Part shown: positions 14,501-50,810 of the stretch, in pieces
How positions within the stretch are numbered: the first letter of the stretch is position 1
Layout of the letters: each line of letters opens with the position of its first letter
Origin: a virus
Direction: 5' to 3' (one strand)
IMG/VR virus record: IMGVR_UViG_3300031758_000022
Coordinates: 1-64,000 of that record
Length of the DNA: 64,000 bases
Position numbers and translations under genes: made by a program
The notes under the pieces: model-generated
Seen by the model: only the letters and a program-made list of their open reading frames with translations
Told to the model about the DNA's origin: nothing
Databases searched by the model: none

Positions 14501-15044
14501 AACTGATACCAAAGGAAATCAAGTTGAAAAAAATACCAATAAAACCATAAAGGAACTCTTTGAAAAGGGTGCAATAAACTCTACATTTGTAGAGATGCTA
14601 GTTAAAGCGCCCAATCTTCAAAAACTACAAGATGCTCTGGCTCAATACCGTATTCCTGAAAACAGATCTTTGTTTAACAAGAAAGATAAAGAAGGAAATA
14701 TTGTACCTATAACTTTTGAAGAACTTGCTGAAATTTATGATAAAAGAGTGAGAGCTTTTTATAATCAAAATTTAATAGAACTAATGGATGTTGCTCAAGC
14801 TAATGAATTCATTTTTGACTTAAGAGATAAACTTGCTTCTGAAAAAGAAGGAATTGTTGATAATATGGATGAAGAAACAAAAAATGAGATTAAAGAAGCA
14901 GTAAATTCTGCAACAGATCCTGCTACTAAAATTAAGGATATTCAGAATCTTAATGATGAAGTTAATAATACTTCTGAAGAAGAAATTGATAATGAGTTCC
15001 TTGATAGTCTTAAGGAATGTGATAATGGAAAACAAATAGATTAA
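8580..15044 (+). CDS. Giant putative ejected virion protein (2154 aa) with a PD-(D/E)xK nuclease domain
   Basis: AGTMDLLLEKDGKYYIIDFKTS...QLNAY (RecB/Cas4-like motifs, ~12745-12880); Gly/Ala-rich hydrophobic segments in the N-terminal half; synteny with the vRNAP gene. Confidence 0.75.
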   Translation: MAENTQKPPITPESIEQQLRSINSYIDSGLPKILAGMDAAEQNQGMQIASMKSFLPQPTAPNIPKIQTLVNGDAFIGPNRGTKQGTFTSGFEYIKALSDNDKIKLSTTADPFFYAKGTSFNGSHEGYNFNRYYAHPNFKKLGFSIYKDNEATYNANSSWFDDFTRMSKTLPSLILNGAWSNLKNWGVTGLEADTETSAQMQYDLGIASSSKQGFGAFTTNLIGNFGYTIGIIGEMVLEDMALRAAAAASRNPVLMATAGVRTTSNLKNLGRAMSVMAKTLNNADKARTFSKAALSGLKSAGKTIMPFQEFGEFATDLMNPNSAISRLADGAKMARGVGSFYRGMKEINAVTSESRLEGGFTQNELIKKEYDAFIEEKGREPNDQENEFIYSNAVKGSTRTILANVPAIFVSNRITLDLALNPYGKLSRTFASNTLKSPLFKVVKGVDGKLSVEAKGLKAGFENLKGITKVFNKDFYKGTPTKLSDTFGIKNIGRNVGGGIRYFKANLMEGLQETYQEGVQVAVEDYYLNKYYADLYSDPMIAANHSIAAAIEKGFESQISSQGLDVFASGFLMGGLAGGVQNKIMQPLAFSGMRAKDYIYKTNEYKTYQEEEKQRLQNFADAVNDVRARRAEYASWLDENVKAQRDLQAEYEAWSEMGDEHEVENTKKDSMFMHVMTLLRYNRYNVFQDELEGLKDLTDDELSEAFNDQGEDKSKTRERLETAIKKANDVKKWYDKVNEKIVNPFKPNIFDRDRDPKGYGQELMGYKAFETAKQALMFNEYSYQYAIEKIESLLNKASLNSPLGNVASSDFSILYRLVDLQSRIKNDLPTEIDFLNGGDATQKKEAKKKQTQLDNLKDLNDEMKRFMGIHNLIERAASGSTEAKTQLSEIANAIKGKVAVVSEPDPITGQISMEFDSEEISDDAFVMSYQKDQLWSSYAKYSKNIADLNNVFPILESLENSFDDFTSFLKLNNDAKRFAGFLDILADPNSIYAMSDRIMGAMNKASENSANLVKEAVNKFNSITNNNELLQDLVGLKVYFAPEEVENFFKKGILPKVFYDAGTGLPIKETDPKYAKIIDFITRYEQLKGVTFSGKPVMPPAPAPGTPASGGTSEEVETASDDNLPEAEDDEEEITDETPLDKYPPKVKAELMVEYNKAVARAKKIDALIPTIGDWLADSPSAKAIIERASRRGTIVKKDITTQITKESPKSIVGPTPALAGIYDTPFKLVQGVGYQQVDDDGKPVTTAEGEPIIARRVTSIIDKIIDKSEESLKLAQDRGNILDQWLKDFSTPDPTTGISQKDYYLNLIANYNAKLPGSEADLADYVMTLIKGTELTLKIQGDKLGINFSPGTGKDLANIGMELARTFHDSVWYPDVPPVVGMIEGKLTAGTMDLLLEKDGKYYIIDFKTSFKPRRTKEFYTQSDKVQLNAYADNFESMTGLKVERLHILNLLVSSSSDGKNITSIKFDKYPKADSDKKTILSPPITRESVNSILGYKEGKADEEPVVTDAIKAIETRRQETISNIQFVEERNEYATLYGEQKERLRAKTEEELLYKIKAAYDAELVAEYRKQEIAEFRRDVEDAESFIVNGRIDSKKVKASSNAKAKEIYDRYDDLITPLLEEAKPAPAVDAAQQKTLFKVFEKAFYEGNDKRYDDISDETLAKLSPATRQYLLSLYETLKPFNSTFQRMGKILDKQTSKEITTEDQKIKYVTSSYFGGLGRGSSELGSPANPKHKDLVLPVPTADVLTNINEVFGAKLTDAELAALEGKPTTTKVDWNTVIDRAKSAQEIDKIMDQIYAANASTPELIDRALVKKESFKKSKANVPTRFGGKLIYAPYGTVDPIIFEKYDIVNADDVLKEVLRENNLSEDPNFEEKPGAVLYASPKRAILENNVKEKIKELLKSGKTVVSSNWFLRAEANVFSSPSSSKALFVKEADSAESSIDQFNEYVAKEPARQAAYDITQQEGWESITTDTKGNQVEKNTNKTIKELFEKGAINSTFVEMLVKAPNLQKLQDALAQYRIPENRSLFNKKDKEGNIVPITFEELAEIYDKRVRAFYNQNLIELMDVAQANEFIFDLRDKLASEKEGIVDNMDEETKNEIKEAVNSATDPATKIKDIQNLNDEVNNTSEEEIDNEFLDSLKECDNGKQID

Positions 15045-15056
15045 ACATTATAAAGC

Positions 15057-18000
15057 ATGGTTTGCGTACTTTCTGAAAATCAAGAAAGAGCTTTCTTAAA
15101 AAGAATTCTCAAAGATATTCAATCTAATATTAAAACGGGGGTGCCATTTGACCTAAATGGTTATATGTCAGGCATTTACAAAAAAGTACTAAATGCTACT
15201 AGTAATCCTGATATGGCTATTACTTATGCTGCTATTATTCCAGAGAACTTAATGAGTTTATTGGGACCTATTGCAGAGATAAGAGATTACCTTATTCCTT
15301 CTATTGCACAGATTAATGAGCAAGCTAAAGCTTATGCTGCAGATCCTATGAATGTTGTATCTTTTCTGGGTCTTGATCCAGTTAAAGATCAAAAGGACTT
15401 AGAAGCTGATATTAAAAGTCTTAATGAAAAGAAAGATGCTGCTGACAAAGAAGATGAAAAGAGATCTAATATTGCCAAAGCAAGTATCTCTATAAGACCT
15501 TATACATTTGATAGTACAACAGGAGATGAAACAGATCCTGACCTAATGTTCAGCTATGCTTTCTTGAAGAATGTATTAAACAATGGACAGACTGACTCGC
15601 AAGATACGGGTTACTATGTTACATTGATGAGTTCTAAAGAAGCATTACAAGGTATCACAGTTAATAACAAATCTTATACATCCGGTGTATTACAAGTAAT
15701 TACAGATGTTAATGGTAACATCTTGTACTTTAATAATGATTATCAACCGGTAAATAAGGAAGAGGGGGCACCTGTATTCTTTAGACTCCGTGAGAAAAGA
15801 GATACTGTTCAGACTATCAAGGAGCTTATGTTTACTCAGAACTTCACAACAGAAGAAGCTGAAGAGTATATAGAAATACAGAGAGCTAATGTAAAAAAGA
15901 AAAAGGATTTTGTTCTTGCTGCCCCTGGTAGAAAAGTAGTACAGAGTATTACAGGTGGTAGCTACGGCTATATTCCTGATGAAGACTCTTATACAGATCT
16001 TTCTACAGCAGAGGACATGTCAGAGAATCCTCTAAAGAGAACTAATCAGTTCAAAGCTTTTAGTAGAGGTGCTTACAAAGATGTGGTACCATTTAAAATG
16101 AATTCTGTAGATTCAGACCAAGAGTTTCTTGAGGATGCAATCAACATCTTACTAGGAGAAAATCTAGTGGATGAAAGAGGTAAAAAATCTCCAGAAACAC
16201 TTCTTGTCTATAGAGAGAAGTTTTTTCAAGTTTACTTTGGTAACAACTATGAGAATGTATTCTTTGGTAAGAAAACAAAAACTAGAGGTAAGCTTTATGT
16301 AATGTTTGCCGATGGTAAAAAACTTGACAAGCCTGTTATTGCTACTAGAGAAAATCTTAGAGATGCTTTAGTAAACAACATTGTAAAAGATAATAAGACA
16401 GGTGAAATGGTCCCTGTACTACATGCTTATAACGTTTATTCTAAAGATGGTGAAACAACACCTTCTTACCAAAAGAATACAGATGGCACCATTACTTTAA
16501 AAGGTAATGGTACTAGTCCTGTGCAGTATAGAAAGTGGCTTCAGAATAACTCAAAGACCTTAAAACCTTTTGATTCTACAACAGGAAAGTTTCAAGACTT
16601 GAATGGCTATTTCATTTTTGAAACTATGAAAGAGCTTGAGGGTGAGGGAGTTACAGAACAGAAGGTTAAGACTGAGAAAGAAGTAACTACTAGTGGTACT
16701 ATTACTTACTCTACTACTGAAAAATTAAGAGAGCTTCATAATGAAGGTAAGCTCTTGTACACAATGCGTGTATCAGAAAAACAAGCAGCATCAGAGAAAC
16801 TTAAATTCAAGGGTCTTACTCCTAATAAACATTTTGGTAATCCTTTTACTGGAACAGATGTAAAAGGAACTATTCCTATGGAGGATATTTCTGCTGCTGT
16901 AGATGCTTATGAAAAATGGCTTGATGGGCAGAATGTATTTACAGATAAGAATGGTGAACTCCATGATCTATCTGATATTGCTGATAGAAGAGCTTGGATT
17001 AATTCTCAGATTGATAGACTTAAACTTAAAGGTGGTGCACAACTAGGCTACTTTAAAGGTGGCTATAGAAGTCATGCCGATGTTCTTAATGAAAGAATTA
17101 ATGGTAAGGCTGATAAGCAAGTTGAAACAGCTACTACAAATAATCTTGCTATAGAAGTAATCTCTGAAAATTATACTGTTAAACTACTTAGGGCGAATCC
17201 TAATAAACTTTTTCTGTTTGGAGATAACAATACTAGAACTGGTAAAGGTGGTCAAGCTATTATTAGAGATGAACCTAATGCTGTGGGTATCTCTACAAAA
17301 TTATTACCTAAGAATACCCCAGAAGCATTTATGTCAGATGATCAACTTGCTGATAACAAAGCAGTTATAGATTCTGATATTAAAAAAGCAAAAGAAAAAG
17401 CAGCTAAAGAAGGTAAAACTATTGTATTGCCTAAAGGAGGATTTGGTACCGGATTAGCAGCACTTGCTACAAAAGCTCCACAAACATTTGCTTATCTAAA
17501 TCAAAGACTTCAAGAGGAGTTTGGATTTGATAATGTTTCTGGTAATATATCTAAATCTGCAAAATCTGAAGCTAGTCCTGTAACACCAAAACCTGTATTC
17601 CAAGCTAAAACTTTTAATAAACCTAGTGCTGCTTCTAGAGAGATAAAAAAGATTAATGATAAAGACACTTTAAATAAACTTAAAGGTCAAGGTATTATTA
17701 ATGAGTCTGTTACAGAAGAACAAATTAATGCTGCTAAAGAATGGTATGACAGCCATCCTATGAGTCGATTTGTTCCATATGAGGTAATGTTTAACATTAT
17801 TAATACAGAGAACCCTAACTCTATTGCTACTTTTTCTAGAGCAGGTATTGTACTTTCTAGAGCAGGTATTGTACTTTACAAAGGGTCAAACTTTGCAGAT
17901 TTGTACCATGAGGCATGGCATGCCTTTACTCAGATGTTTCTTACAGAAGCTCAACGTAAAAAACTTTACAAAGAGCTTTCTAATAAGTCAGGTACTTTCA

Positions 18001-21000
18001 AAGCATTTGATGGAACTACTGTTACTTTTAAGGATGCTACATCTAAGCAACTAGAAGAATATCTAGCTGAAGACTTTAGACAGTTTATGCTTAATGGCGG
18101 TAAGTTTAAAGGTGCAGATAAAGAACCTGTAAAGAAATCTATCTTTAAAAATATACTAGATTTCCTAAAGGCTGTATTTAATATTAGCAATGACACCATC
18201 TACAATGATGAAAAAGTTAGTAACCTTCTAGAAGAAGTATATACTAAACTACGTCTTGGTGATATTAATCCTATTCCTTATGGGCTTGAAAACTCTGAGT
18301 TTACTAAGCTAGATAAAATTAAAGCTGTTAATCCGGATGAGCAAGATCTTCTTGATGAGATGGGTTATGCACAGGCTATGAAAATAGTTAATGCTATTGA
18401 TGCTGTATTCTCACAAATAGTAGATAAAGTATCTAAAGAGCACGGTGTTAGTTATGCGGCAAGTCTGTTCTCAGATCCTGCAAGAAGAACTGCAGCTTAC
18501 AATGAAGTAATTGCTGAGTTTGTAACTAAGTACACAGACCTTTCTGATAAGCTTGTTAATATGTCTACTGATGATGTAGGGTATGAAAAGCTCTATAAGT
18601 CAGTTAAGACACTAGAACTTGCTATTACTAACTTTGCTCCTGCTTCTACATTAGGTCAAGAACTTACTCAAGATGATGTAATTAGTGCAATTCAAAAAGA
18701 CTCTGGTATTCTAGGGTTCCACTTGAAAAAGTCTAAGTATCTACAGTTTGATGAAACATATGACCTTATTAATAACTTAGAGGAAGAAGATCCGGATTCT
18801 AAGACTGTAAAAGACAAAGATGGTTATAGCCATAAATCAGGAAATGAAATTTCCATGAGAGAACTGGCAGCCAAAGAAGTCCTTTATACTATTAGAAGTC
18901 TATATAAATATGAGGGTGGAAAGCTTCAGTATGATGACTTTGGTTTCCCACAGCTTAATGATTTTGATGTAAGCTGGAATAAGATTCAAAAAGCTTTGTC
19001 TGGAAGCATGGGTGTAGAAGATATCTACAAAAAACTCCAAGCTTCAAAAGATAAAGTAATGCAACATCTTTTAGAAAAGCTAGGTAATCCTGATGCTCAA
19101 ACCGGTATAGAGAATGATCTTACAGCTGAGAGCATAGCTCAAAATGCTTTGTGGACAAACTTTACACAGACCTTTACAGCTACCAGAATTCCTTTGATTC
19201 AACTTACTGTTAACTTCCAAATGGATGATAATGGTAATTATATTCTAGAACCTAAGCCTGGAAAAGCCCAAGGAGATCTTAATAGAATTGCTAAAGCATG
19301 GGAAGTAAACTTCAGCCGTCCTTATAAAGAGGGTGAGAGAAAGTACATTGTAACTAAGAAAGTAGATAGAGGTGAAGGCAAGACAAGCTTTACAAGTAAC
19401 TATCTTAATGTTTCAGAAGTTCTCAAAGACTTTAAAGACTCCTATAAAACTAAGCCTATAGACTTTTTAAGAAGTCTTGGTATGGATGTATCTGCAGTAC
19501 CTGAAATTCAGAATGCTCTTAGAACTAATCTGCGTGTATTAGTAAATGGACTGTGGACAAGACTTAACCATATAAACAATAATAATAAAGACAAGAAGAT
19601 CTTTATCAATAGTATAAAGGATCTTATCAATATTAAAATTGATGGTAAGACTGAGGACAACTCTTATAAAGAGCTCTTAGCTCTTGAGAGTAGATACTCT
19701 GACTTGTATGGCACCGGTATGGTGTACAATGCAAGTGGAGATGGTCAGTTTGAGTTCTCTAAAAATGGAACATTCACTGTTCAGATTAATTCACTTAATG
19801 CTGCAAAAGGGTATAATGAGCTTATTAGTGACCCTAAAATGTCACATTTGGATTATGAAAGAAATCCAGCAATGCGTAATAACCTGATCTTAAAGGCTTT
19901 ATTTGGTGAAAACCTAGGTGCTAAAATTAAACAAGAGACTCCAGGTGGTAGAGAGACCTTTGCTAAAATTGAGTTGATTAACTCTAGTGGTGTTTCTGTA
20001 ACTATAGATAATGAGTTTGCAAACATTGGTATTGCTACCTCTGATGCAGATGAGATTACAAACCTTTTGCAGAACTTCTATACTACACTTATATATGGAA
20101 CTCCTGCTACAACTCAGCACTCAGATAAGTCTTCAGCTTATTTGTATAAAATAGTATTTCCTAGTGGTAAAAAGAACTATGTAAACATATTTAAGTTTGC
20201 TCAGTACAATAGTGACAAAGACATTGATCTAACTGCAGGTAATCTTGAGACATTGTCACACTTTATGACCTTCTTAGATTCAGAAATTCAAAGAATGGTT
20301 AAGCTAAGAAACGGTGATGAGGCTGGATTAGTTACTGTTGGAGATGACCTGTATAAAAATATAGGTGATAAGTTTGTAACCTTTAAAGATATTCTTAGCC
20401 CAAAAACTAAAGCTAAGCTTGAAAAAGGAAAATTCATTTCAGAAAACTTCCTAGAAAAGATCAATAGTGCAAAGGGTACAAATTTAAGAAGAGACATTGA
20501 AGCTGATATACTAGCATACTTCAACAACATTGTAGGTGAGTTTAAAAAGGATGGAGCTAAGTTTGGTTTGCAAAAAAATCAAAAGCTTATGAAATCCGTT
20601 AGAGATCTTTTCTTAAACTCTGAAGAACTCCCTTTGAGTCTTTATGAAAAAGAAAATGAAAACTATCTTGATGAGGCCATCTTTAGATCATTTGTACTGA
20701 ATGACTGGATTCATAAGCATGAAACAGGTAATCTGTTTTATGGTGATGTAGCTCTTTATAATCTTAAAAAAGAAGAGTATCATAAGAGAAATGCAGCATT
20801 TGCAGCTACTGGGGAGATTATGCGTACTGACAATGCTATGCTTAATATGCTAAATAACGTAGCTTCTAAATATAGTTATGCAGATAGTGAATGGTTTAGT
20901 AAGTCCGGATATAATAAAAACGGAGCTAAAGTATTTAAGAGAACAATGAATACTGCTGTTCTACAAGATACTAAGAGTAAATCATCTCTAATGGATCACT

Positions 21001-24000
21001 ATAAAGATGCTGTTATCAAAGCTGAAAGAAAAAGACTTGGTGATAAGTATGAAGAGAAAAGAGATGTATTTGAATCTAATATCAATAAGCTTTTCTCTGA
21101 GTATGGTAAGATGAAAGAAGGGGATGGTCAAGGATGGATTTCTTTTGATTCATACAGAGCCATGCTTATGAGTCTTGGTAAATGGTCACCTCCTCAGGAA
21201 CAATTGTATAGAAGAATCCTAAGAAATGAGAAAGTAGATACTGCTACTGTATTGAAGTTCTTCCCTGTAAAGAAGATGCAATACTATGGTCCATTGAAAA
21301 CCAATGGTTTACCTGTTGTGGGTTTCCATAAGTTTTCTTTGATGCCTCTTATCCCAAATGTTATTGAGGGTAGTAATCTAGAAATTCTTCATAATAGAAT
21401 GGTTGAGCAAAACATTGATTATGCTTTGTTCCAATCAGCATCTAAAGTTAATACTATTACTAGTAATGGTGTAGTTGATCAGTTCTATCTAGATAATAGC
21501 AGAGCATCTAATGAGGTAGCTTTTGCTCAACCGGGCTTTAAATTTACAAACAATGAGATCTTTATTGATTACTTTAAAGATCAAACAGAAGTTCATGATA
21601 AATTTAAGGGCACAATTCTTTTCTCAACACAGTTAAGAAAACTTGTAGAGGAAGGTCTTATGGAGCAAGGTGTACCTACTAGTTTTAGAAATGACTTGCC
21701 AGAAAAAGAGAAAAAAGAACTCTGGGAAAGTTTAAGTGAATCTGAAAAGCTAAAGGATCCTAACTATAATAAGCTTATAGCTTATGAAAGTCTTATTAAA
21801 AAGCATATTGACTTTAAAATAAAAGAGCTCAAAAAAGAAATGGCTTTGCATTTTAAAGATGGAAAGCTTGTTATGTCTCAAAAGTTAATTGACTTTATAA
21901 AAAAAGAACTTGAAAGACAAGACCTTGCTGAGCATGAAATTGACTTTATTAAGTTTAGTGAATTTAGTAACTCATTAGTTTATGACTTGAGTATTCACCC
22001 ATCTGCAGAAACAATTGAAAAACTGCTTGTTGCTATTGTAAATAAGAGAGTTGTTAAACAGAAAATAAACGGTGAAGCTTTAGTTCAAGTTTCTGGAGCA
22101 GGATTTGAAAAAGCTAATATTAGAAAAGCTACTGCAGAAGAAAACAGAATTTATGATGATGTAGGATTACCTACCTATGAATTAGGTCCTGATGGCATTG
22201 TTAGAGGAATGAAAGTTAAAATTGCTCTTCAAGGAGATTTCAAGAAACTACTGAAGCTTAAAGAGGTAACTATATTGATGAAAGCTAAGACAGGCCGCAC
22301 TAGATTGCAAGCTCTTAACATGCTTATCAAAGATGAGGCATGGCTTAATGAAGGTGATAACAGAAAGCTTGTTACTATGGCCGGTGTACGTATTCCTGTA
22401 CAAGGTCTTAATAATATGGAATTTGCTGAAGTTTATGAGTTCTTGCCAGAGGCTGCGGGTAATATGATTATCCTACCAAGAGAAATTGTAGCAAAGGCAG
22501 GATCTGACTTTGACATTGATAAGCTATTCATGATGTTCCCTAGTCTTGTAAAGACTTCTAAAGGTATTTCTTTAGTTAAATATAAAGAAGGAAGTGAAGA
22601 TACTGTTGATAAAGAGACAGCCTACCAACAACTATTTGATTTATACAGACAAAGAGAGGAAGCTTTTCAAAATGTTATTGACTACACTCAAGACAAGATG
22701 AATGAGTTTCCTGATGAGTTAAAAAGCGACTTTGAGGATACTGTTAAACAATACAAAGATGCTATTAGAAATGCTAAGAATAATCTCCAGGATGCCTTTG
22801 AGCGCCAGGAACAACCAGATCCAAGCCTATATGTAGAACTTAATGAGCTATCATTAGAATTGGAAGAGCTATATTCTACAGCTTCTAAAGAGTTTAGAGA
22901 TTATAAAAATGATCTTGTAAATCCTATTCAAGATAGAATTGATAATCTTACTTTAGAAATATCTAGTGCTTCAGCAAAAGGTATTGAAAATGATTTGCTC
23001 TTTAGTCTTGTAGATATTTTGTCTATGGAGCAGAACTTCTCAGATCTTATTACTCCTAACAGTACAGAATATGTAAAAACTATTGCTGATGATATCTCTA
23101 AGTATACAAGAGACTATGATGCATACAAAAACTTTACTACTGGAAGAGAGGATATTATTTCTGGAACCAGAATTTATGAGCTAGGTTATAATAGATACAA
23201 ACAGTCTTCAAATAACATTGGTAAAAAGACCCTAGGTCTTGGTGCTGTTGATAATACTTATAACACTCTGTTTAACAGGGTTGGTGCTTACATGGTAAGA
23301 ACTGCAGAAATAGGTTCTAAGAAAAACCCATATGACATCATCCAACAAATCAGAATGCCTCATAACACCATTAGCATTAATGATGAAGATGTTATATCAT
23401 TGTCTAATATCTATGATGTAGAAGGTAAGTATAGAATTTCAACTCTAATCAGCCAAATGATGAATGGTTGGGTTGACGTTGCTAAAGATGCTTGGATTTT
23501 TGATATTAATGGTAATAAAGAAGTCAGCCCTACTTTGCTATTTATGGTACAGGCAGGCGTGCCATTAGAACAGGCTATCTATTTTGCAGCACAGCCTATT
23601 GTTAGAAAGTATGTAGAAGAACAAAGAAAAGCTAAAAGTACTTTTGCTAAACCTCTTAATAGAGAACCTTCAAGTCCTAACATGTATAGGGTTGAAACAA
23701 GATCTAGAATGATTAAAGAACTTCTTCCAGAAGATTTTTATAATAATTATTTTGAACCTTATGTAGTAACAGAAAAAGGAAAGATATTAGGTAGTAAGTT
23801 TGACTCTAACTATATTAAGAAAACTATTTATACTGAGTTTGTACCAACCTTTCTTAATAACACAGGTGAGTATGAAACATCTGCTCCAGACTTTAGTGCT
23901 AATACTCTTAAGAAAACTTTAGATGGCTCTTCTACTAAACTTCAAGATTTACAGGTATTACTTCATTTTATAGAACTTGAAGAGATGTCTAGTGCCACTA

Positions 24001-26096
24001 CCCAAGTCAAACTTTCTATGAACTTTGATACTCAAAGATCTTCAACACTAAGGTCTGTAAGAGAATCTTTAGCAAAAACTCTTGCACTTAAAACTGATAA
24101 CAGGTTCCCAAATGAAATATTAGAAAAGCTTGAAAAGGAATCACCAATTGGTGCATTTAAGATTCATGATGAGATAATAAATCTTATTGGAGGAATGTTT
24201 ATTTTAAGAGATCATCCTTCTCTAAATAAGCTTATAGATGAGATGACTAATATTTATCCGGATGCCTTTACAGAAAAGTATGGTCATATATTCAAAGATA
24301 CAGAAGCACTTACAAATGCTATCAGAAATGACTTTACAAATTATGTGTTCCAAAGCTGGTTAATAGATCCTAACAGATTTGACCCAAAAGCTCCTTATAA
24401 TAATTTAGGAATTGACTTTGAAGTTAAAAAAGTTCTAGATCTAGAGAGAGGTGCTTTTGTAGAAGGAAACACTCTTTATGTTGATGAAAGAGCTCTAAAT
24501 GATCATGTCAAAGAAGATCTATACTCTTCAGAAAATTATTGGTTAAAACAGGCATTATCTCCTGTAAGCCCAATGTACTTACATGGTAATACAGAAGCTG
24601 AAAAGAAAGCTAAGTATTACAGATTTGTATATGAAAGAGAGACTTTAAGAGCTACAGTTCCTTATGATAACTATAAAAATACTCCTGACTTTGAAGAAAG
24701 AAAGAATGCTATTCTTATTTCTGGAATACTAGATGATTATAGCAATGCAGCTAATTTTGAAAAGATTGTTGGTAGAAGAGCTTATGAAGATTACATAAGA
24801 GATTTGGCTTTGCTAAATAATCTTAATGTCCAATTTATGTTCAAAGATGTTAACTCATATGCTACACAAGTAGATAAGTTGACAATGGATCATAAGAACT
24901 TACTTACTGATTATAAAGTACTTAGCTCATTGCTGTTTACTAATATTAGAGGAGTAAGAAATCTAAAGCTTTCAGAAATCAAACTAACTGCAGATGAAGT
25001 AAACATCTATCATGATGAACTAGAAAGACTTGCTGATCCTCGTATAATGAAAGTGGAAGACCCTTTTGAAAATGCTAGAATTAGTAAAATCTTTGCAGCG
25101 TTTCCTTTCTTTGCTTTCTTCCAAGCAGGTCAAGGGTCTAAAAATAGATACAGCCTATCAAGATTGATATCTACAAAAGTTTATAGTGAGATGTTAAGTG
25201 AGGCATCTGCCTTGGCTATTAAAAAGCTAGATGCATCAAAAGACTTTATAGATACCTATAAAACTAAATTTAATAATCTGTATGCTAAAGAAAAAAGCAA
25301 TGAGTTTGGTTTAGAGGAAGAAGAGGTTGAGGCTAAGTTGTTTACAGCTTTGTACATGAAAGATTATTCTTTAGGGGAATCTGATGAAAATCTAGAAGCA
25401 CCACTTCCAAAAGCTGCAAGCATGGGCTCTTCATACTATGATCCTAATGTTAATCTTTATGATATACATCCGGCTGCTAAATCAGAAACATTGGTTAAGT
25501 ACATTACTTCTAAAAGTAAAGCTAATAATAACCTAGTATTTGCTTTTGATGACAGTCTACAGCCATACTCTACAAAGTATCTACCTGTTAATACAGGTGC
25601 TAGAAAGAATGGTTATAATGGAACTACTCTTTTTGGAAGTATGCTGGCTAAGAGTGAGTTAAGTAAAGAACAAGCTGTAGGTCTTATAACAAAACCGGTT
25701 GCAGTTGTAATGGGTCCAGAAGAACTGTTTAGAGACTCTGATCCACAGCAACATGCTAATAATATCAAGAGAATTGATGCTTGGATTGAAAAGTTGAAAT
25801 CTCTTAGAGATGATGAGAAGAAAACCATTATCTTTAATCTAAAGGGTCATGGTCAAGCTTTCTTAGGATATGGTAGAAATGAATTTACTGATCATGCTGA
25901 AAGTAAGATAACCAAAGATCCAGTAGCCCTAGATAGTTTTGTATATTTGTCTGAGCGCCTGTATAAGGAGTTTGGCTATATCAATCCTATGTACAAAACT
26001 GTAAATAAGAAGAGCTATAGTGAAACAGTTTTAAGTAGCCAACCTATTACAGATGAGATGGTTAAAGAAAAATTACGTCAATGCTTTTATAGTTAA
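15057..26096 (+). CDS. Giant virion RNA polymerase (crAss-like double-psi beta-barrel RNAP) with zincin protease and accessory domains
   Basis: RIPVQG (~22389) and GSDFDIDK catalytic motif (22500-22523); DGQGW motif; HEAWH...EEYLAE zincin (17907-18075); 3679 aa. Confidence 0.9.
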   Translation: MVCVLSENQERAFLKRILKDIQSNIKTGVPFDLNGYMSGIYKKVLNATSNPDMAITYAAIIPENLMSLLGPIAEIRDYLIPSIAQINEQAKAYAADPMNVVSFLGLDPVKDQKDLEADIKSLNEKKDAADKEDEKRSNIAKASISIRPYTFDSTTGDETDPDLMFSYAFLKNVLNNGQTDSQDTGYYVTLMSSKEALQGITVNNKSYTSGVLQVITDVNGNILYFNNDYQPVNKEEGAPVFFRLREKRDTVQTIKELMFTQNFTTEEAEEYIEIQRANVKKKKDFVLAAPGRKVVQSITGGSYGYIPDEDSYTDLSTAEDMSENPLKRTNQFKAFSRGAYKDVVPFKMNSVDSDQEFLEDAINILLGENLVDERGKKSPETLLVYREKFFQVYFGNNYENVFFGKKTKTRGKLYVMFADGKKLDKPVIATRENLRDALVNNIVKDNKTGEMVPVLHAYNVYSKDGETTPSYQKNTDGTITLKGNGTSPVQYRKWLQNNSKTLKPFDSTTGKFQDLNGYFIFETMKELEGEGVTEQKVKTEKEVTTSGTITYSTTEKLRELHNEGKLLYTMRVSEKQAASEKLKFKGLTPNKHFGNPFTGTDVKGTIPMEDISAAVDAYEKWLDGQNVFTDKNGELHDLSDIADRRAWINSQIDRLKLKGGAQLGYFKGGYRSHADVLNERINGKADKQVETATTNNLAIEVISENYTVKLLRANPNKLFLFGDNNTRTGKGGQAIIRDEPNAVGISTKLLPKNTPEAFMSDDQLADNKAVIDSDIKKAKEKAAKEGKTIVLPKGGFGTGLAALATKAPQTFAYLNQRLQEEFGFDNVSGNISKSAKSEASPVTPKPVFQAKTFNKPSAASREIKKINDKDTLNKLKGQGIINESVTEEQINAAKEWYDSHPMSRFVPYEVMFNIINTENPNSIATFSRAGIVLSRAGIVLYKGSNFADLYHEAWHAFTQMFLTEAQRKKLYKELSNKSGTFKAFDGTTVTFKDATSKQLEEYLAEDFRQFMLNGGKFKGADKEPVKKSIFKNILDFLKAVFNISNDTIYNDEKVSNLLEEVYTKLRLGDINPIPYGLENSEFTKLDKIKAVNPDEQDLLDEMGYAQAMKIVNAIDAVFSQIVDKVSKEHGVSYAASLFSDPARRTAAYNEVIAEFVTKYTDLSDKLVNMSTDDVGYEKLYKSVKTLELAITNFAPASTLGQELTQDDVISAIQKDSGILGFHLKKSKYLQFDETYDLINNLEEEDPDSKTVKDKDGYSHKSGNEISMRELAAKEVLYTIRSLYKYEGGKLQYDDFGFPQLNDFDVSWNKIQKALSGSMGVEDIYKKLQASKDKVMQHLLEKLGNPDAQTGIENDLTAESIAQNALWTNFTQTFTATRIPLIQLTVNFQMDDNGNYILEPKPGKAQGDLNRIAKAWEVNFSRPYKEGERKYIVTKKVDRGEGKTSFTSNYLNVSEVLKDFKDSYKTKPIDFLRSLGMDVSAVPEIQNALRTNLRVLVNGLWTRLNHINNNNKDKKIFINSIKDLINIKIDGKTEDNSYKELLALESRYSDLYGTGMVYNASGDGQFEFSKNGTFTVQINSLNAAKGYNELISDPKMSHLDYERNPAMRNNLILKALFGENLGAKIKQETPGGRETFAKIELINSSGVSVTIDNEFANIGIATSDADEITNLLQNFYTTLIYGTPATTQHSDKSSAYLYKIVFPSGKKNYVNIFKFAQYNSDKDIDLTAGNLETLSHFMTFLDSEIQRMVKLRNGDEAGLVTVGDDLYKNIGDKFVTFKDILSPKTKAKLEKGKFISENFLEKINSAKGTNLRRDIEADILAYFNNIVGEFKKDGAKFGLQKNQKLMKSVRDLFLNSEELPLSLYEKENENYLDEAIFRSFVLNDWIHKHETGNLFYGDVALYNLKKEEYHKRNAAFAATGEIMRTDNAMLNMLNNVASKYSYADSEWFSKSGYNKNGAKVFKRTMNTAVLQDTKSKSSLMDHYKDAVIKAERKRLGDKYEEKRDVFESNINKLFSEYGKMKEGDGQGWISFDSYRAMLMSLGKWSPPQEQLYRRILRNEKVDTATVLKFFPVKKMQYYGPLKTNGLPVVGFHKFSLMPLIPNVIEGSNLEILHNRMVEQNIDYALFQSASKVNTITSNGVVDQFYLDNSRASNEVAFAQPGFKFTNNEIFIDYFKDQTEVHDKFKGTILFSTQLRKLVEEGLMEQGVPTSFRNDLPEKEKKELWESLSESEKLKDPNYNKLIAYESLIKKHIDFKIKELKKEMALHFKDGKLVMSQKLIDFIKKELERQDLAEHEIDFIKFSEFSNSLVYDLSIHPSAETIEKLLVAIVNKRVVKQKINGEALVQVSGAGFEKANIRKATAEENRIYDDVGLPTYELGPDGIVRGMKVKIALQGDFKKLLKLKEVTILMKAKTGRTRLQALNMLIKDEAWLNEGDNRKLVTMAGVRIPVQGLNNMEFAEVYEFLPEAAGNMIILPREIVAKAGSDFDIDKLFMMFPSLVKTSKGISLVKYKEGSEDTVDKETAYQQLFDLYRQREEAFQNVIDYTQDKMNEFPDELKSDFEDTVKQYKDAIRNAKNNLQDAFERQEQPDPSLYVELNELSLELEELYSTASKEFRDYKNDLVNPIQDRIDNLTLEISSASAKGIENDLLFSLVDILSMEQNFSDLITPNSTEYVKTIADDISKYTRDYDAYKNFTTGREDIISGTRIYELGYNRYKQSSNNIGKKTLGLGAVDNTYNTLFNRVGAYMVRTAEIGSKKNPYDIIQQIRMPHNTISINDEDVISLSNIYDVEGKYRISTLISQMMNGWVDVAKDAWIFDINGNKEVSPTLLFMVQAGVPLEQAIYFAAQPIVRKYVEEQRKAKSTFAKPLNREPSSPNMYRVETRSRMIKELLPEDFYNNYFEPYVVTEKGKILGSKFDSNYIKKTIYTEFVPTFLNNTGEYETSAPDFSANTLKKTLDGSSTKLQDLQVLLHFIELEEMSSATTQVKLSMNFDTQRSSTLRSVRESLAKTLALKTDNRFPNEILEKLEKESPIGAFKIHDEIINLIGGMFILRDHPSLNKLIDEMTNIYPDAFTEKYGHIFKDTEALTNAIRNDFTNYVFQSWLIDPNRFDPKAPYNNLGIDFEVKKVLDLERGAFVEGNTLYVDERALNDHVKEDLYSSENYWLKQALSPVSPMYLHGNTEAEKKAKYYRFVYERETLRATVPYDNYKNTPDFEERKNAILISGILDDYSNAANFEKIVGRRAYEDYIRDLALLNNLNVQFMFKDVNSYATQVDKLTMDHKNLLTDYKVLSSLLFTNIRGVRNLKLSEIKLTADEVNIYHDELERLADPRIMKVEDPFENARISKIFAAFPFFAFFQAGQGSKNRYSLSRLISTKVYSEMLSEASALAIKKLDASKDFIDTYKTKFNNLYAKEKSNEFGLEEEEVEAKLFTALYMKDYSLGESDENLEAPLPKAASMGSSYYDPNVNLYDIHPAAKSETLVKYITSKSKANNNLVFAFDDSLQPYSTKYLPVNTGARKNGYNGTTLFGSMLAKSELSKEQAVGLITKPVAVVMGPEELFRDSDPQQHANNIKRIDAWIEKLKSLRDDEKKTIIFNLKGHGQAFLGYGRNEFTDHAESKITKDPVALDSFVYLSERLYKEFGYINPMYKTVNKKSYSETVLSSQPITDEMVKEKLRQCFYS
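17835..17876 (+). repeat. Exact 21-bp tandem duplication (SRAGIVL x2)
   Basis: tctagagcaggtattgtactt repeated twice in frame. Confidence 0.95.
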
Positions 26097-26101
26097 GTAA
26101 A

Positions 26102-29100
26102 ATGAATAGTTGCCCTAATAGAATAAGTCCTGAATGGAAAGCTTTATCAGAAGCTGTAGGTGAATTTGAAGCTATGCGTGACTTTATGGAGTATGGAGAT
26201 ATCCGTACTCCTAAAGAAGTGCAACAGAAAATTAGTAAATCCAAAACAGAAAATTCTAAACCTATCCCTTTTAATAAACAACTTGATGATCTTCTATTAG
26301 ATTTTGTTAAAGGTCTTAAAATTAATGTAGTTGAGCAACCTGAGGAAATTGTTACTACTTTAAGGTCACTTACTGGGTCACCATTAGCTGCATTTGATGT
26401 CTTACAAAAGTATTTAGCAATAAAAGAAGACCGAAATCTAGAGACAGTACCAGAAGTAGTTGCATATATTGCCTATACTTTTCTTGGTCAAAAATCTAAA
26501 TTGGGAAAAGACCTTTGGTATAATATATCAAGTTGGGATAAATACGATTATTACTATAACAAGTTTGCTCCTTTTAAAAGATTAGGTGAACCATCTTTTA
26601 CAATGGATGATGAAGTAATTGAATCAGAAGATCTGTTTAAAAACAGAAATAACTGGGCTCATAGACAAGTAATAGTTGAGTTTATAAAACAAGGTTTAGT
26701 TGGTAATTTTCAAAAAGATATTAGTCCTGAAGTCACTTTTGATAATCCTGATTTAGATGCTAAGTTTTTTGCTAAAAAAGGATTCAAAAATCCTTATGTA
26801 GAAGGTAAACTTTTGTCTATCTGGAACAAACTTTACAATTGGATTAGAGAACATATTCTAGGTGTAAAAAAGTTTGATACATATAATCAAGAAAAGCTTA
26901 ATAATCTTCTGTTAGACATTGTTGATAATGTTTATAAAAAAGACTATAGTAAGTTTATTCGTGGTGTGTATGAGAAAGATGGTAAGCTTTTTAAAGCTGA
27001 TGGTACTGAACTTGAATTAAAAGATTATGATAAGACATTAGAAAAAGATCAATTTGCTAAGTCTCTTATTTTAAGGTTAGTAGAAAATCCTTATGTCAAT
27101 TTTAAACTTTCAGGATCACAAGTAATCAGAAAATATGGTAATTTGTGGCGTGATGTAAATGAAGATCTTCATGATATTGACGGTGTTATTACTCTTGAAA
27201 CATTTAGAAAAGAACAGAATGCTAAAAAGTTTTATGAGTGGATTACAACTCGTGGGTTAGAATTAAAAAATGCTGAGAGACGTAAGCAATTCACCAAAGA
27301 GATAATTCCATTTTTAGAAGAACAAGCTTGGTATAGAAATGTACAAGACATGTTTCCTTCTTGGACATTAGGTGCTACATTTATTGGAAAAGATCATAAA
27401 AAAGGTGAATCTGTAACTATATCTGGTTATATAGAACATCCAACAGAAACTGTGCTTGTAAAAAATGCTGATGGTACAGGAGCTAGTATGTTTTTTAAAC
27501 CTTCAGATAATGGTAAAATTTTACCTAAAAGATATGTATTAGATTTCTTTTTAAGAACTGCAGAAGGTAACTACCCTGAGATTTTTGATAATTATTGGAA
27601 AGATTGGAAACAAATCTTTGAAGCTAAAATAGCTATGGGGCGTTCAAAAGATATTAGTGATCTTATCTACTTTGATCCTTTTATAAATGATAAGTATAAA
27701 TTTACATCAAAAGGTTACAGATATTTTTCATTTTCTGAAACACAATCAAAAATAGAAAGCTCTGATATAAATTCTGAAGAAGCTAATGTTGCATTCTTCA
27801 AAGAATTAGGTAATTACAATAACAAGTATACTGCTCTTACAGAGCCTTTACTTGTTAATGAAGAAACTAATAAGAAAGACAGAGGAAATGAAATTGCCAA
27901 TAAGCTAGCTGCACTCCTTGCTAATAATATAGAAGGTCTTAGTGTTGAAATGGTTACTGAGGAACAAGCAGCTCAGATAATTCAAGATGCCGGTATTCCT
28001 TATAAAAATGAAGCAGCTTTCTATGTAGGTGATAAAGTATACTTTATTGCTGATAGAATGACTACTGAGATAGTATTCCACGAGTTTGCTCACCCTATTG
28101 TTAGATCTATAGCATTGTCTAACAACACCTTGTTTAATAATTTATATAATCAAGTAGCCAGCACACCGGAAGGAAGAGAACTAATCAATGCTGTAAAAAG
28201 AACCTATCCTGAGTTAAAGGAAGGTTCTGATCGTTTTAAAGAAGAGGTTATAGTATTTGCCATATCTAAAGCGGCAAATCTTAAATATAACAACAAAGCA
28301 AAAAGTACAGGATTTGCCAAGTTTATTAAGGATTTGCTATTTGCTGTCAAGCAGATGTTCCGCAGACTATTAAAAGGTCAAAAAATATCTATTGAGAAAC
28401 TTGACGTTGATACTACTTTGGATCAATTGGCTGAAATGCTTAATTCTGAGAAGTTTAAAATCAACACAGAAGTACTTAATCAAGAAGATGTTATAGCATT
28501 TGCTAGAGATATAAAACAGCAAGTAATGGATGACCTGCTAACATTAGAGCAGTCAGACATGAATAAAATTACCCGTGAGTTTTCTAAAACCTTCCTCAGA
28601 CAGAGAAAGATAATGGAAGCTACTAAGTATACTGAAGTAAAACAGTTGTTTGAAAACAAACTTAAAAAATCAGACTTAAGTGAAGTACTTAGTTATCTAA
28701 GAGAATATAATATTTCCGGTGAGGTATCATTTAAGACTGATGAAGAAGAAATAGAATATCTTACAAACCATGCTTTAGCCCTATATAATAGCTTAGAAAA
28801 GCTTAATAATATGGGTAAGAAGGCTGTGGGTCAGCTTAGAAAGATAGCTACTGAAGAAATTGATGATAAGCAGGCTTTATTAAGAGCCTCTAATCTTAAC
28901 AAGTTTATTGTAGACTGGCTTTCATTCTTGGATTATATCCAACAAGTAGCTGACAGCGAAGTATATAGAGATAATCTAACTCCAGATAATGCTCTGTTCT
29001 CATTGATTAGTGAAGCAAGAAATAACCTGCAAAGAGGTAAAAGATATACAGATGATATCTATAGCGAAGGTGTTGCCGACCTAATAAACACTCAACTAAA

Positions 29101-32100
29101 GCCTCTGAATGATAATATTGAAGCATACTATGAGAGAATAAGAACAAAGCTTAAAGCTAAAAATGCTCCTCAGTCTTTAATTGATAGATATGAAGAAGAG
29201 TACAATGAAGTAAGACTTACACCAGAAACTGTAAAGAAACTAATTGAAGGTGAACTTGGAGATGCACATGCTCTTAATAGTTTCTTAGAAGGTTATATGT
29301 ATAACCAAGATCCAGTAGTATTTGGATTTGCTTCTTATGTTAAAGATAGATATTCAGAAATGTATGCTGAAATACAAAGTAGCTTTAACAATTTCATTGA
29401 CTCTATTGATGGCTTAGCAAGTGCTGCTGGTTATAAAACAGCTTATCAAAGAATGACTATGGGTAAAGACCTATGGTTTCTAGATGCTGTATCTACTAAT
29501 AAAGAAGATAGTAAACCAAAGCTTGTATGGAAGTTCTTAACTCCATTCAGAAACTACCAAAAAGATTATAGAGATCTTAAAGATAGATTATCTGCAGCGC
29601 ATGATAAAGTAAATGAAAATAACTCTAATGATAATAACAAAGAGCTTATCAATGCTATCACTGATCTAGCAGCATTTGAAAAGAAATATATGAATCGTAG
29701 GTATACAGATGAATACTACGAATTGTATAATATGTTTAATGATGAGATTGGTAAAACGGCTTTCTTAGAAAGAGAAAAAATTATAGGTGAATTAAGGGCC
29801 TATAACGGAGAGATTACTGATCCGGAGGAGCTTCTTAATAATATTACTCTAAGTAGAGAAAAGCTTAAAGAACTTAAGCAATTGTCTTCTTTTACATATT
29901 CTGATGGTACACCAAAACCTATAGACTCAGATGATTATGCTGTTGCTAAAAGATTGCAGGAGTATAATAAACTAAGTAAAAAGTTCCATGAATGGAAGCC
30001 TAGAGAAGGCGCATTTGAAAGTGCATATCTTCATTTTGAAGATCTTGTTGCTACTAAGTATGGTAGAGGTAGTGAAGAGTATGATACAAGTATGGAAGAA
30101 TGGATAGAGAAAAATACTGTCCGTAAAACTTCTCAAAGATATTTTGATGATAGAAATAGAATCTTTACACAATTATCTGCTCTATCATCTAATGATGCTG
30201 TTCTAGAAGAAATTAATGAGCTTAGAGAAGAGTTGAACTCTTACATTGCTCCTTATAAGGATCAGAACTATATTCCTATTGGTTCAGATATACCTCCAGC
30301 AGTTGTAAAAAGAATTAAAGAGATTGAAGAAGAACTTAAAGAATTAAGAAAGAGTTCTTCTACAGCTCCAAAAGGAATGACTAAAGCTGAGTATGGTGTT
30401 TATAAACTATACAATGAAACTCTTGATGCCTATAAAATAGGCGCTGGAGCAGCACCTTCTGCTGACTTAACTCTACAGTATGAAGTTATAATAGAGAGAC
30501 TTGCTCAATCTAAACTAAGTCAAGAGGATATTGATAAATCACTAGAAATATCTCAGCTGTACTATGAGCTAGATCTTATTACTAAGAAGAGTGTAAGTCA
30601 AAACTATCTAGATACCTTGAATAGCTTTATTCAAAGTACCCCTAAGATGCTAGATTACATTCAAAAGAATTTGAATATTAGTGAGTTTAGTGAGTCAGAT
30701 GTTAATGATCTTCTTCTAAGAGAGCCTGATATGATTAATATGGCTGTCTTATTCAAAATGAATCCTGACTTTGCTGACTGGATATTAAAAAACCACAGCA
30801 CCTATACAAATCAGGCTGGGCTTAATACTTATTCACCTTTGTCTATATGGACATATAGCAGGCCTGCAAGTAGTGATTACTATGAGCAGACAATTATTTT
30901 TGATAATGAAGGTAATGAAATCAAAAGAATTGATGGAGTACCTACAGCTGAGTATACTTACAGAACTGTAAAAGACTTCTATGTTGATGATGCTGGTAAT
31001 GAAGTTAAACTTAAGACAGAAAGAAAAACCATTCTAGACTGTTTTAATGAAGGACTCTCTATTGAAAACGCTACTGTTGATATGCTAGGTAATTTCTTAC
31101 CTAAGATTAATAATACAGATAGGACTTACATCAATGAAGATTACTTTAACTTAGAGAAAAATGATCCTGCTAAGTTTAAGCTTTTAAATAAACTTATCCA
31201 AGAGCATCTAAACTTCCAAACAAAACTTCCATATGATAGCCGCCTAGACTTAGAGGCACCTAGATATGGCCAAGAAGACTATGAGATCTTTACTACTACT
31301 AGACAAAATCCTTTAAGTGTTTGGGCTGGTAAGGTAAAAAGATTCTTCTCTACTGCAGCGGATGACCTGGAAGAGGGATTGAACCCTACCTATATGAATG
31401 CATCTAATACTACAGACTTACTAAATGATGCTTATGCTAAGGTTCCTATTACTGGTAAGTATGATTTGCCTAGTGAACAAGTATCTATGGATGTCTTGAG
31501 AGGTATGACTAGATATATGCAATCTGGTATTAAACAAAAAACTCTTATAGATATGCTTCCTACAGCTCAGGCATTAAGAAGTATATTACAAGATCCTGGT
31601 AGAAATGAGGAAGCACTTAAGAGAAAACTAAAAGGTTTTACAGCAGTTGTTAACTTGTCAACCGGATATCTGTATCCTAAAAATTCTCAGCAAATGAGCA
31701 TAAGAGCTAAGGCTATTAATGCTTTTATTGAAAGAGAGTTTGAAGGAAAAACCCAAACAGGTTTTACAAAGAACATGGGAGGTCTTAATAAGTTTGTTAA
31801 TGGTATTTTTGGATTATCCTCTACATCATTCTTTGCCTTTAACTTACCATCTACCCTTAAAAATACATTTGGTTTTAAACACCAAGCTATGATTCAGGCC
31901 GCTGGAGGTAAGTATTTTACAGTAGGTGATTATTTGAAAGGAAGTATGTGGGCAAATGCTACATCATTTGAGATAAGTATGCAGCTTTATAAAACTACTT
32001 CTAGATCTTTGAATGTTCAGTTAGTTGAGATGATGGATCCACTACAAGGTAGATTGATGAAAAAAATCACTCAAGGTGTAGGAACCACTAGATCTTTATT

Positions 32101-50402: not shown

Positions 50403-50810
50403 TTATTCCCACAAACTTCTAAACAAAGATTTTATATTTTTAACTCCTACAGGGTTCATACTATGTATGAGAATCTCAGGTACTTGCCAATTGTTTTCTT
50501 GGTAATATTCCAAAAACCACTTTGCACAATGATATCCTGTTTTATTGTAGTCATCTTCAAAACTCTTTCCGTCATAATCTAATATACCGTCCACCATGTT
50601 TTGATGATAGTGACCATCCACTAAATCATGATCAAAAGAAATAGTATCTATGCTATCTCCAGCTGCTTTTACAGCTTCAACAAACTCCGGGTAATTTCTT
50701 ACTATTACCCAATCATCTTGACCATAGATAGTAGAATAACCGTTTATTCTAGCGGCCATATAAGTTAAGCAATCAGCCGGCTTTCTAAAGTCATCAAGGA
50801 AAATTTTCAT
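50403..50810 (-). CDS. Cyclic-phosphate-processing receiver-like (cREC) domain protein
   Basis: IFLDDFR.P, VRNY.EF, ISFDHDL, TGYHCAKW, IHSMNPVG. Confidence 0.8.
   Translation of the reverse strand: MKIFLDDFRKPADCLTYMAARINGYSTIYGQDDWVIVRNYPEFVEAVKAAGDSIDTISFDHDLVDGHYHQNMVDGILDYDGKSFEDDYNKTGYHCAKWFLEYYQENNWQVPEILIHSMNPVGVKNIKSLFRSLWE

Follow-up and report, generated by a model that had tools for sequence, protein, structure and literature searches.

The window analysed here is a stretch of 64,000 nucleotides (nt), positions 1 to 64,000 of the IMG/VR virus record IMGVR_UViG_3300031758_000022, and judged by its sequence it belongs to a divergent crAss-like phage and contains that phage's polymerase cargo block, which consists of three giant proteins named here P1, P2 (the virion RNA polymerase, vRNAP), and P3. 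They are encoded by the last three of the seven large open reading frames (ORFs) that occupy the plus strand from 47 to 33160. P1 (8580–15044; 2154 amino acids [aa], 240 kDa), P2 (15057–26096; 3679 aa, 418 kDa), and P3 (26102–33160; 2352 aa, 272 kDa) all lie on this strand and are tightly packed, with gaps of 12 nt between P1 and P2 and 5 nt between P2 and P3. For both P2 (ATG at 15057) and P3 (ATG at 26102), no earlier start codon follows the preceding in-frame stop. P2 is homologous to phi14:2 gp66 and crAss001 gp50, and the equivalents of P3 are phi14:2 gp65 and crAss001 gp49. The core of P2 matched phi14:2 g066 (tblastn, 28.6% identity, P2 residues 2003–2528) and many crAss-like ("cr") genomes. 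The catalytic motif of the RNA polymerase, DFDID, is found at 22506–22520 on the plus strand (P2 residues 2484–2488) within the sequence GSDFDIDK (residues 2482–2489), and its aspartates D2484, D2486, and D2488 were invariant in a 54-sequence alignment (A1). The virion gene block ends with P2 and a giant polymerase-associated cargo gene on either side of it. Homologues of the cargo block were found in the virions of phi14:2 (gp66 literature) and crAss001 (PMC10172136), and this homology suggests that P2 is likewise packed in the virion and ejected. The window proteins are, however, far larger than those of the cultured crassviruses (3679 vs. 2180 aa for the polymerase), with a core identity of about 24–29%, and a phmmer search of P1, P2, and P3 against the PDB sequences returned nothing at E 0.01.

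Cysteines at the Junctions of the Cargo Genes

The initial annotation had noted that the cysteines (Cys) of P1, P2, and P3 face each other across the gene junctions and had proposed that they link consecutive proteins in gene order, C-end to N-end. Every coordinate of its Cys count was matched by a computed recount, with all codons on the plus strand. The sole Cys of P1 is Cys2147 (TGT, 15018–15020), the eighth residue from the C-end. The 3679 residues of P2 include only Cys3 (TGC, 15063–15065) and Cys3676 (TGC, 26082–26084), the latter being the fourth residue from the C-end, while P3 carries Cys4 (TGC, 26111–26113) and one internal residue, Cys1647 (TGT, 31040–31042), which was common to 13 of 49 aligned homologues. 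Four of the five Cys are therefore located at the two inter-gene junctions, as had been claimed, and the outer ends of the row (the N-end of P1 and the C-end of P3) have none, which holds in the relatives too. Based on the Cys frequency in the other large ORFs of the window (1.07%), about 88 Cys would be expected in the 8185 aa of the three proteins versus the 5 seen; the whole plus-strand block of 11011 aa has 7. The probability that at least four of five Cys fall by chance in the four junction-facing windows of 10 residues was 2.8e-9. A further claim, that P2 contains a DUF4326-like domain deprived of its usual Cys, found little backing. There is a match to PF14216, which is weak (E 0.028, 15.5 bits vs. 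a cut-off of 25); it covers P2 residues 590–656 (window 16824–17024) and leaves the Cys-bearing part of the profile outside the alignment, and the ..LGYF..SHADVL stretch (residues 663–677) lies just past it.

Conservation in orthologues and a recount of internal Cys had been set beforehand as computational tests that could refute the proposed linkage. The recount revealed no extra internal Cys in the window trio, and the terminal Cys were conserved in the homologues of P1, P2, and P3. Among 120 homologues of P2 (28–50% identity), 106 had a Cys at residues 3–9 together with a Cys 1–9 residues from the C-end, the remaining 14 being N- or C-terminally truncated relative to P2; internal Cys were absent in 97 of the 120. 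The columns of P2 Cys3 and Cys3676 were as invariant as the DFDxD aspartates (54/54 aligned homologues, 27–44% identity). All 39 homologues of P1 had a C-terminal Cys (1–10 residues from the end), which was the sole Cys in 36 of them, and none had an N-terminal Cys. As for P3, a Cys at residues 3–10 with none at the C-end was found in 70 of 75 homologues, and Cys4 was invariant in all 49 aligned homologues, being one of seven invariant columns. The same rule was observed in the homologous trios of the cultured phages. In phi14:2 (gp67–gp66–gp65), the Cys of gp67 is its last residue, gp66 has Cys3 and Cys2179 of its 2180 residues, and gp65 has Cys3, while in crAss001 the Cys are located at position -3 of gp47, at residue 5 and position -9 of gp50, and at residue 5 of gp49.

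A scan of 79 polymerase-centred IMG/VR loci then recorded Cys within 12 residues of the facing ends. We found that 136 of the 138 in-row junctions had Cys on both facing ends. The two exceptional junctions were sequence defects, namely a single in-frame stop inside P2 (L071) and a frameshift (L080), for which an MVNC start was found in the neighbouring frame. None of the 55 N-ends of P1 and none of the 68 C-ends of P3 had a Cys, 74 of the 76 control junctions among upstream virion genes were without Cys, and the cargo rows of the 79 loci contained 25 internal Cys in 539,181 aa. The placement of these Cys is real, strongly selected, and order-wide. It is hardly conceivable that it results from chance, from wrong starts, or from a nucleotide-level junction signal (e.g., translational coupling) that happens to encode Cys. 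The tight gene packing would suit such a signal, but the offsets of the terminal Cys vary among homologues (3–10 residues from the N-end and 1–11 from the C-end) while the residue itself stays, and both TGT and TGC are used; chance is opposed by a P of about 3e-9 in this window alone. A start-codon artefact was ruled out because no ATG lies between the preceding stop and each start used, and because the motif is conserved. The nucleotide-level signal was also ruled out: in crAss001, cr128_1, and DAC15 the P1 equivalent is on the opposite strand and all terminal Cys are still present, and since non-adjacent genes keep their terminal Cys, no signal at the DNA level is involved.

Insertions, Splits, and Fusions in the Cargo Row

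Genes inserted into the cargo row had Cys at both ends. They encode proteins of 754 aa (L004), 574 aa (L016), 739 aa (L049), 1228 aa (L068, between P1 and P2), and about 270 aa (L072 and L080), and in L058 two inserted genes of 1325 and 318 aa produce a five-member row. P3 has a module boundary at about residues 566–590 (27797–27871, plus strand), where no Cys is found in the window. At this boundary the gene is divided in L016, L004, L049, and L058, and Cys occur on both new ends; the 574-aa protein of L016 corresponds to residues 3–566 of the window P3, and the next protein to residues 590–2349. Fusions were found as well. In five Suoliviridae, P1 and P2 are fused into one protein (4460–4946 aa) that lacks Cys both at its N-end and around the point of fusion, and both its C-terminal Cys and the N-terminal Cys of P3 are retained. 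Flavobacterium phage Fpv1 gp33 (4401 aa) has one Cys, at position -2, and is followed by gp34 with Cys3. In p-crAssphage and crAss002, P2 and P3 are fused into a protein with Cys3 and without a C-terminal Cys, and the C-terminal Cys of P1 is retained. A fully fused single polyprotein is mentioned in the phi14:2 preprint; our search for one found two-gene fusions and no complete fusion, and the IAS virus sequence has ambiguous bases at the relevant boundary.

In the two-member systems, where each protein has one Cys and the Cys are on the facing ends, the sole hetero-pair would run from C-end to N-end, so a ring is impossible. The gain of Cys on both new ends at splits and the loss of both on fusion are predicted by head-to-tail pairing and not by self-pairing. 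In the sequences compared here, head-to-tail pairing predicts every case seen. Disulfides in another topology, in which like ends of the same protein pair with each other or the middle proteins are closed into rings and P1 pairs with P3, are accordingly quite unlikely. Parity alone does not exclude them, the Cys counts being even in all arrangements. Nevertheless, only one hetero-pair and no ring is possible in the Suoliviridae, Fpv1, p-crAssphage, and cyanopodophage A4 (see below), neither self-pairing nor a ring predicts paired Cys at split ends and the absence of both in fusions, and a ring would need to traverse the tail as a hairpin.

A different role for the terminal Cys was also considered, in which they would not link the cargo proteins to each other and would serve as a packaging or processing signal, or attach these proteins to the portal or to the 1077-aa virion protein encoded upstream of P1 (5343–8576, plus strand). 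That protein has only two Cys, 128 and 134, in a CxxxxxC arrangement that occurs at the same place in most relatives and in some not at all; it may form an internal or inter-subunit disulfide. Its conservation in most relatives would suit an attachment of this kind, as would the lone C-terminal Cys, without an obvious partner, of three smaller putative cargo proteins. These are p-crAssphage gp47 (L090 1588–4161, 857 aa), with a single Cys at position -2, and p-crAssphage gp48 (L090 673–1467) and crAss002 gp30 (L091 2393–4066), which have in common a terminal ..RCGG.. motif with the Cys 6–8 residues from the end. However, the CxxxxxC is missing in many relatives that have all terminal Cys, and the two features are uncoupled. 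Moreover, a signal would be needless on both sides of each boundary and there only, and it would not vanish on fusion. We therefore give such a role little credence.

Several further cases touch on the Cys at protein ends. A 2342-aa protein from a 226-kb contig (P0222) combines the N-terminal module of P3 with helicase domains and carries a Cys at residue 3 and another 2 residues from the C-end; because of the Cys at both ends, it looks like the middle member of a longer row. In crAss002 gp33 (L091 13088–13190), an MSC.. start at annotated residue 33 agrees with p-crAssphage gp44 and with the Cys rule, and the annotation probably begins the gene 32 codons upstream of its true start. In cr108_1 (L084 15824–16133), the polymerase ORF is interrupted within its catalytic motif (..AKAGSD) and continues in a new ORF some 300 nt further on. 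The break, where no Cys occurs, resembles an intervening element or a fault of assembly and not a true protein boundary.

A Probable Head-to-Tail Chain of Cargo Proteins

The proposal that consecutive proteins are linked from C-end to N-end in gene order is backed by the conservation, the recount, and the insertions, splits, and fusions, and the head-to-tail linkage of P1, P2, and P3 is well supported by comparison of their sequences. Cyanopodophage A4 offers a known case of such a link, since cryo-electron microscopy showed a disulfide between gp27 Cys1715 and gp26 Cys5 in its pre-ejectosome (PNAS 2025, PMC12002296). In the record of Anabaena phage A-4L, the sole Cys of gp27 (1717 aa) lies 3 residues from the C-end, and the sole Cys of gp26 (1114 aa) is residue 5. 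As in the window, adjacent genes encode large ejected proteins in which the facing-end Cys are (nearly) the only ones. In contrast, A4 belongs to the Saffermanviridae and has one joint, two proteins, and no polymerase, whereas the crassvirus row would have two to four joints and middle members bonded at both ends. No BLAST similarity was found between A4 gp27/gp26 and P1, P2, and P3 (best E 0.27). By analogy, the cargo row would work like the A4 pair, and as far as tested it does not appear to be related to it by descent.

The same joint might depend on other chemistry, such as a shared metal ion, another thiol-based cross-link, or a tight contact. The chemistry is not readable from sequence, and the coupling of the junction Cys would fit any joint of two thiols. 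A metal ion would nevertheless be poorly held by two thiols alone, the terminal Cys have no conserved His, Asp, or additional Cys beside them, and the same arrangement in A4 is a disulfide, so that a joint of this sort seems improbable, if somewhat less so than the alternative topologies or a non-linking role. In our view, an end-to-end connection between the cargo proteins is probable, with disulfide bonds as its most likely form, and the best reading of the locus, which we regard as fairly likely to be correct, is a disulfide-linked head-to-tail chain in gene order.

In such a chain, P1 Cys2147 would pair with P2 Cys3 and P2 Cys3676 with P3 Cys4, each pair forming an inter-protein disulfide, and the particle would contain P1, P2, and P3 joined head to tail into a single thread of about 930 kDa. 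During assembly the ends would dock. Considering that assembly takes place in the reducing cytoplasm, the thiols would be oxidized after the particle has left it, as must also be the case for the inter-protein disulfides between tail hub and ring proteins in crAss001 virions (Bayfield 2023, PMC10172136). The latter connect structural tail proteins, not cargo, and are not end-to-end joints. Since the Cys lie within about 10 residues of the chain ends, the joint would be nearly linear, and the chain could be threaded unfolded through the portal and tail. Such a chain would hold the proteins at 1:1:1 and fix their order of exit, host cytoplasmic reductants would then free the polymerase, and mispairing would be avoided by the scarcity of other Cys.

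Several points weigh against the disulfide chain. The pairing is deduced from co-occurrence, and an S–S bond between facing cargo Cys has been seen in the particle for A4 only. Oxidation is not assured, given the reducing cytoplasm at assembly and the anoxic gut habitat. With phi14:2 gp66, recombinant protein could be purified on its own and assayed in the presence of dithiothreitol, which indicates that the link is dispensable for catalysis. Cys1647 of P3 has no partner in the scheme, and the human-gut relatives have more internal Cys (7 in the fused protein of cr10_1 and 8 in p-crAssphage gp44), so the argument that scarcity of Cys prevents scrambling is weaker for them.

The avoidance of Cys itself looks common to the ejected giants of N4 and the crass phages. 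The N4 vRNAP gp50 (3500 aa), gp51 (644 aa), and gp52 (150 aa) have no Cys at all, and N4 likewise ejects a giant virion polymerase with helper proteins. However, its polymerase is of an unrelated type, and having no terminal Cys it could have no tether of this kind; the terminal pairs are what stands out in the crass phages. No description of terminal Cys pairs for Crassvirales was found in full-text literature searches, and neither the gp66 literature (in its preprint version) nor the crAss001 atlas mentions terminal Cys. The link has so far been observed once, in the unrelated phage A4, and the proposed chain would be a new form of it with several joints.

Among the phages of the human gut, Crassvirales are the most abundant, and the linkage bears on how a polymerase cargo of about a megadalton is delivered through a narrow tail. 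If true, a reducible covalent tether would account for equal copy numbers and for an unvarying order of exit, as well as for the tolerance of gene fusions and splits in the cargo block. In addition, annotators can use the Cys rule to locate correct starts, to spot frameshifts, and to recognize additional members of the cargo row. More speculatively, and with rather less confidence than we attach to the chain, the terminal Cys pair might be an evolutionary stand-in for a peptide bond. Two to five genes could then supply a thread of 6,000–9,000 residues that exits in gene order as a single unfolded chain and is cut by host reductants into working enzymes, which would constitute a redox timer for the first viral transcription, and the likeness to A4 would hint at a general principle of podophage ejection.

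Other Features of the Locus

Residues 1270–1441 of P1 matched the PD-(D/E)XK nuclease family PF12705 with 26 bits, above the Pfam gathering score of 22, and P1 also matched the exonuclease phrog_298 (E 7.6e-12). P2 contains DUF7831 at residues 704–816. Domains are shuffled among the chain members: in a comparison of P0122 and P0143, a P1 homologue (88% identity) had DUF7831 in place of the PD-(D/E)XK nuclease, and in P0143 the P1-like parts were joined to a stretch 83% identical to P2 residues 685–837. PHROGs gave no function for P3 or for the four upstream virion proteins. P3 contains a HEFAH (HExxH) motif at 28079–28093 on the plus strand (residues 660–664), a zincin-like candidate for which no Pfam family was matched; its E661 and H664 were nearly invariant in the 49 aligned homologues.

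After the giants, the minus strand carries a replication and nucleotide-metabolism block, which includes a DnaB-like helicase, a Toprim primase, a PD-(D/E)XK exonuclease, a SNF2-type helicase, an AAA ATPase, and a MazG-like enzyme. Within this block, a small protein encoded at 50403–50810 on the minus strand has a cREC_REC domain (cyclic-phosphate processing receiver; E 7.8e-21).

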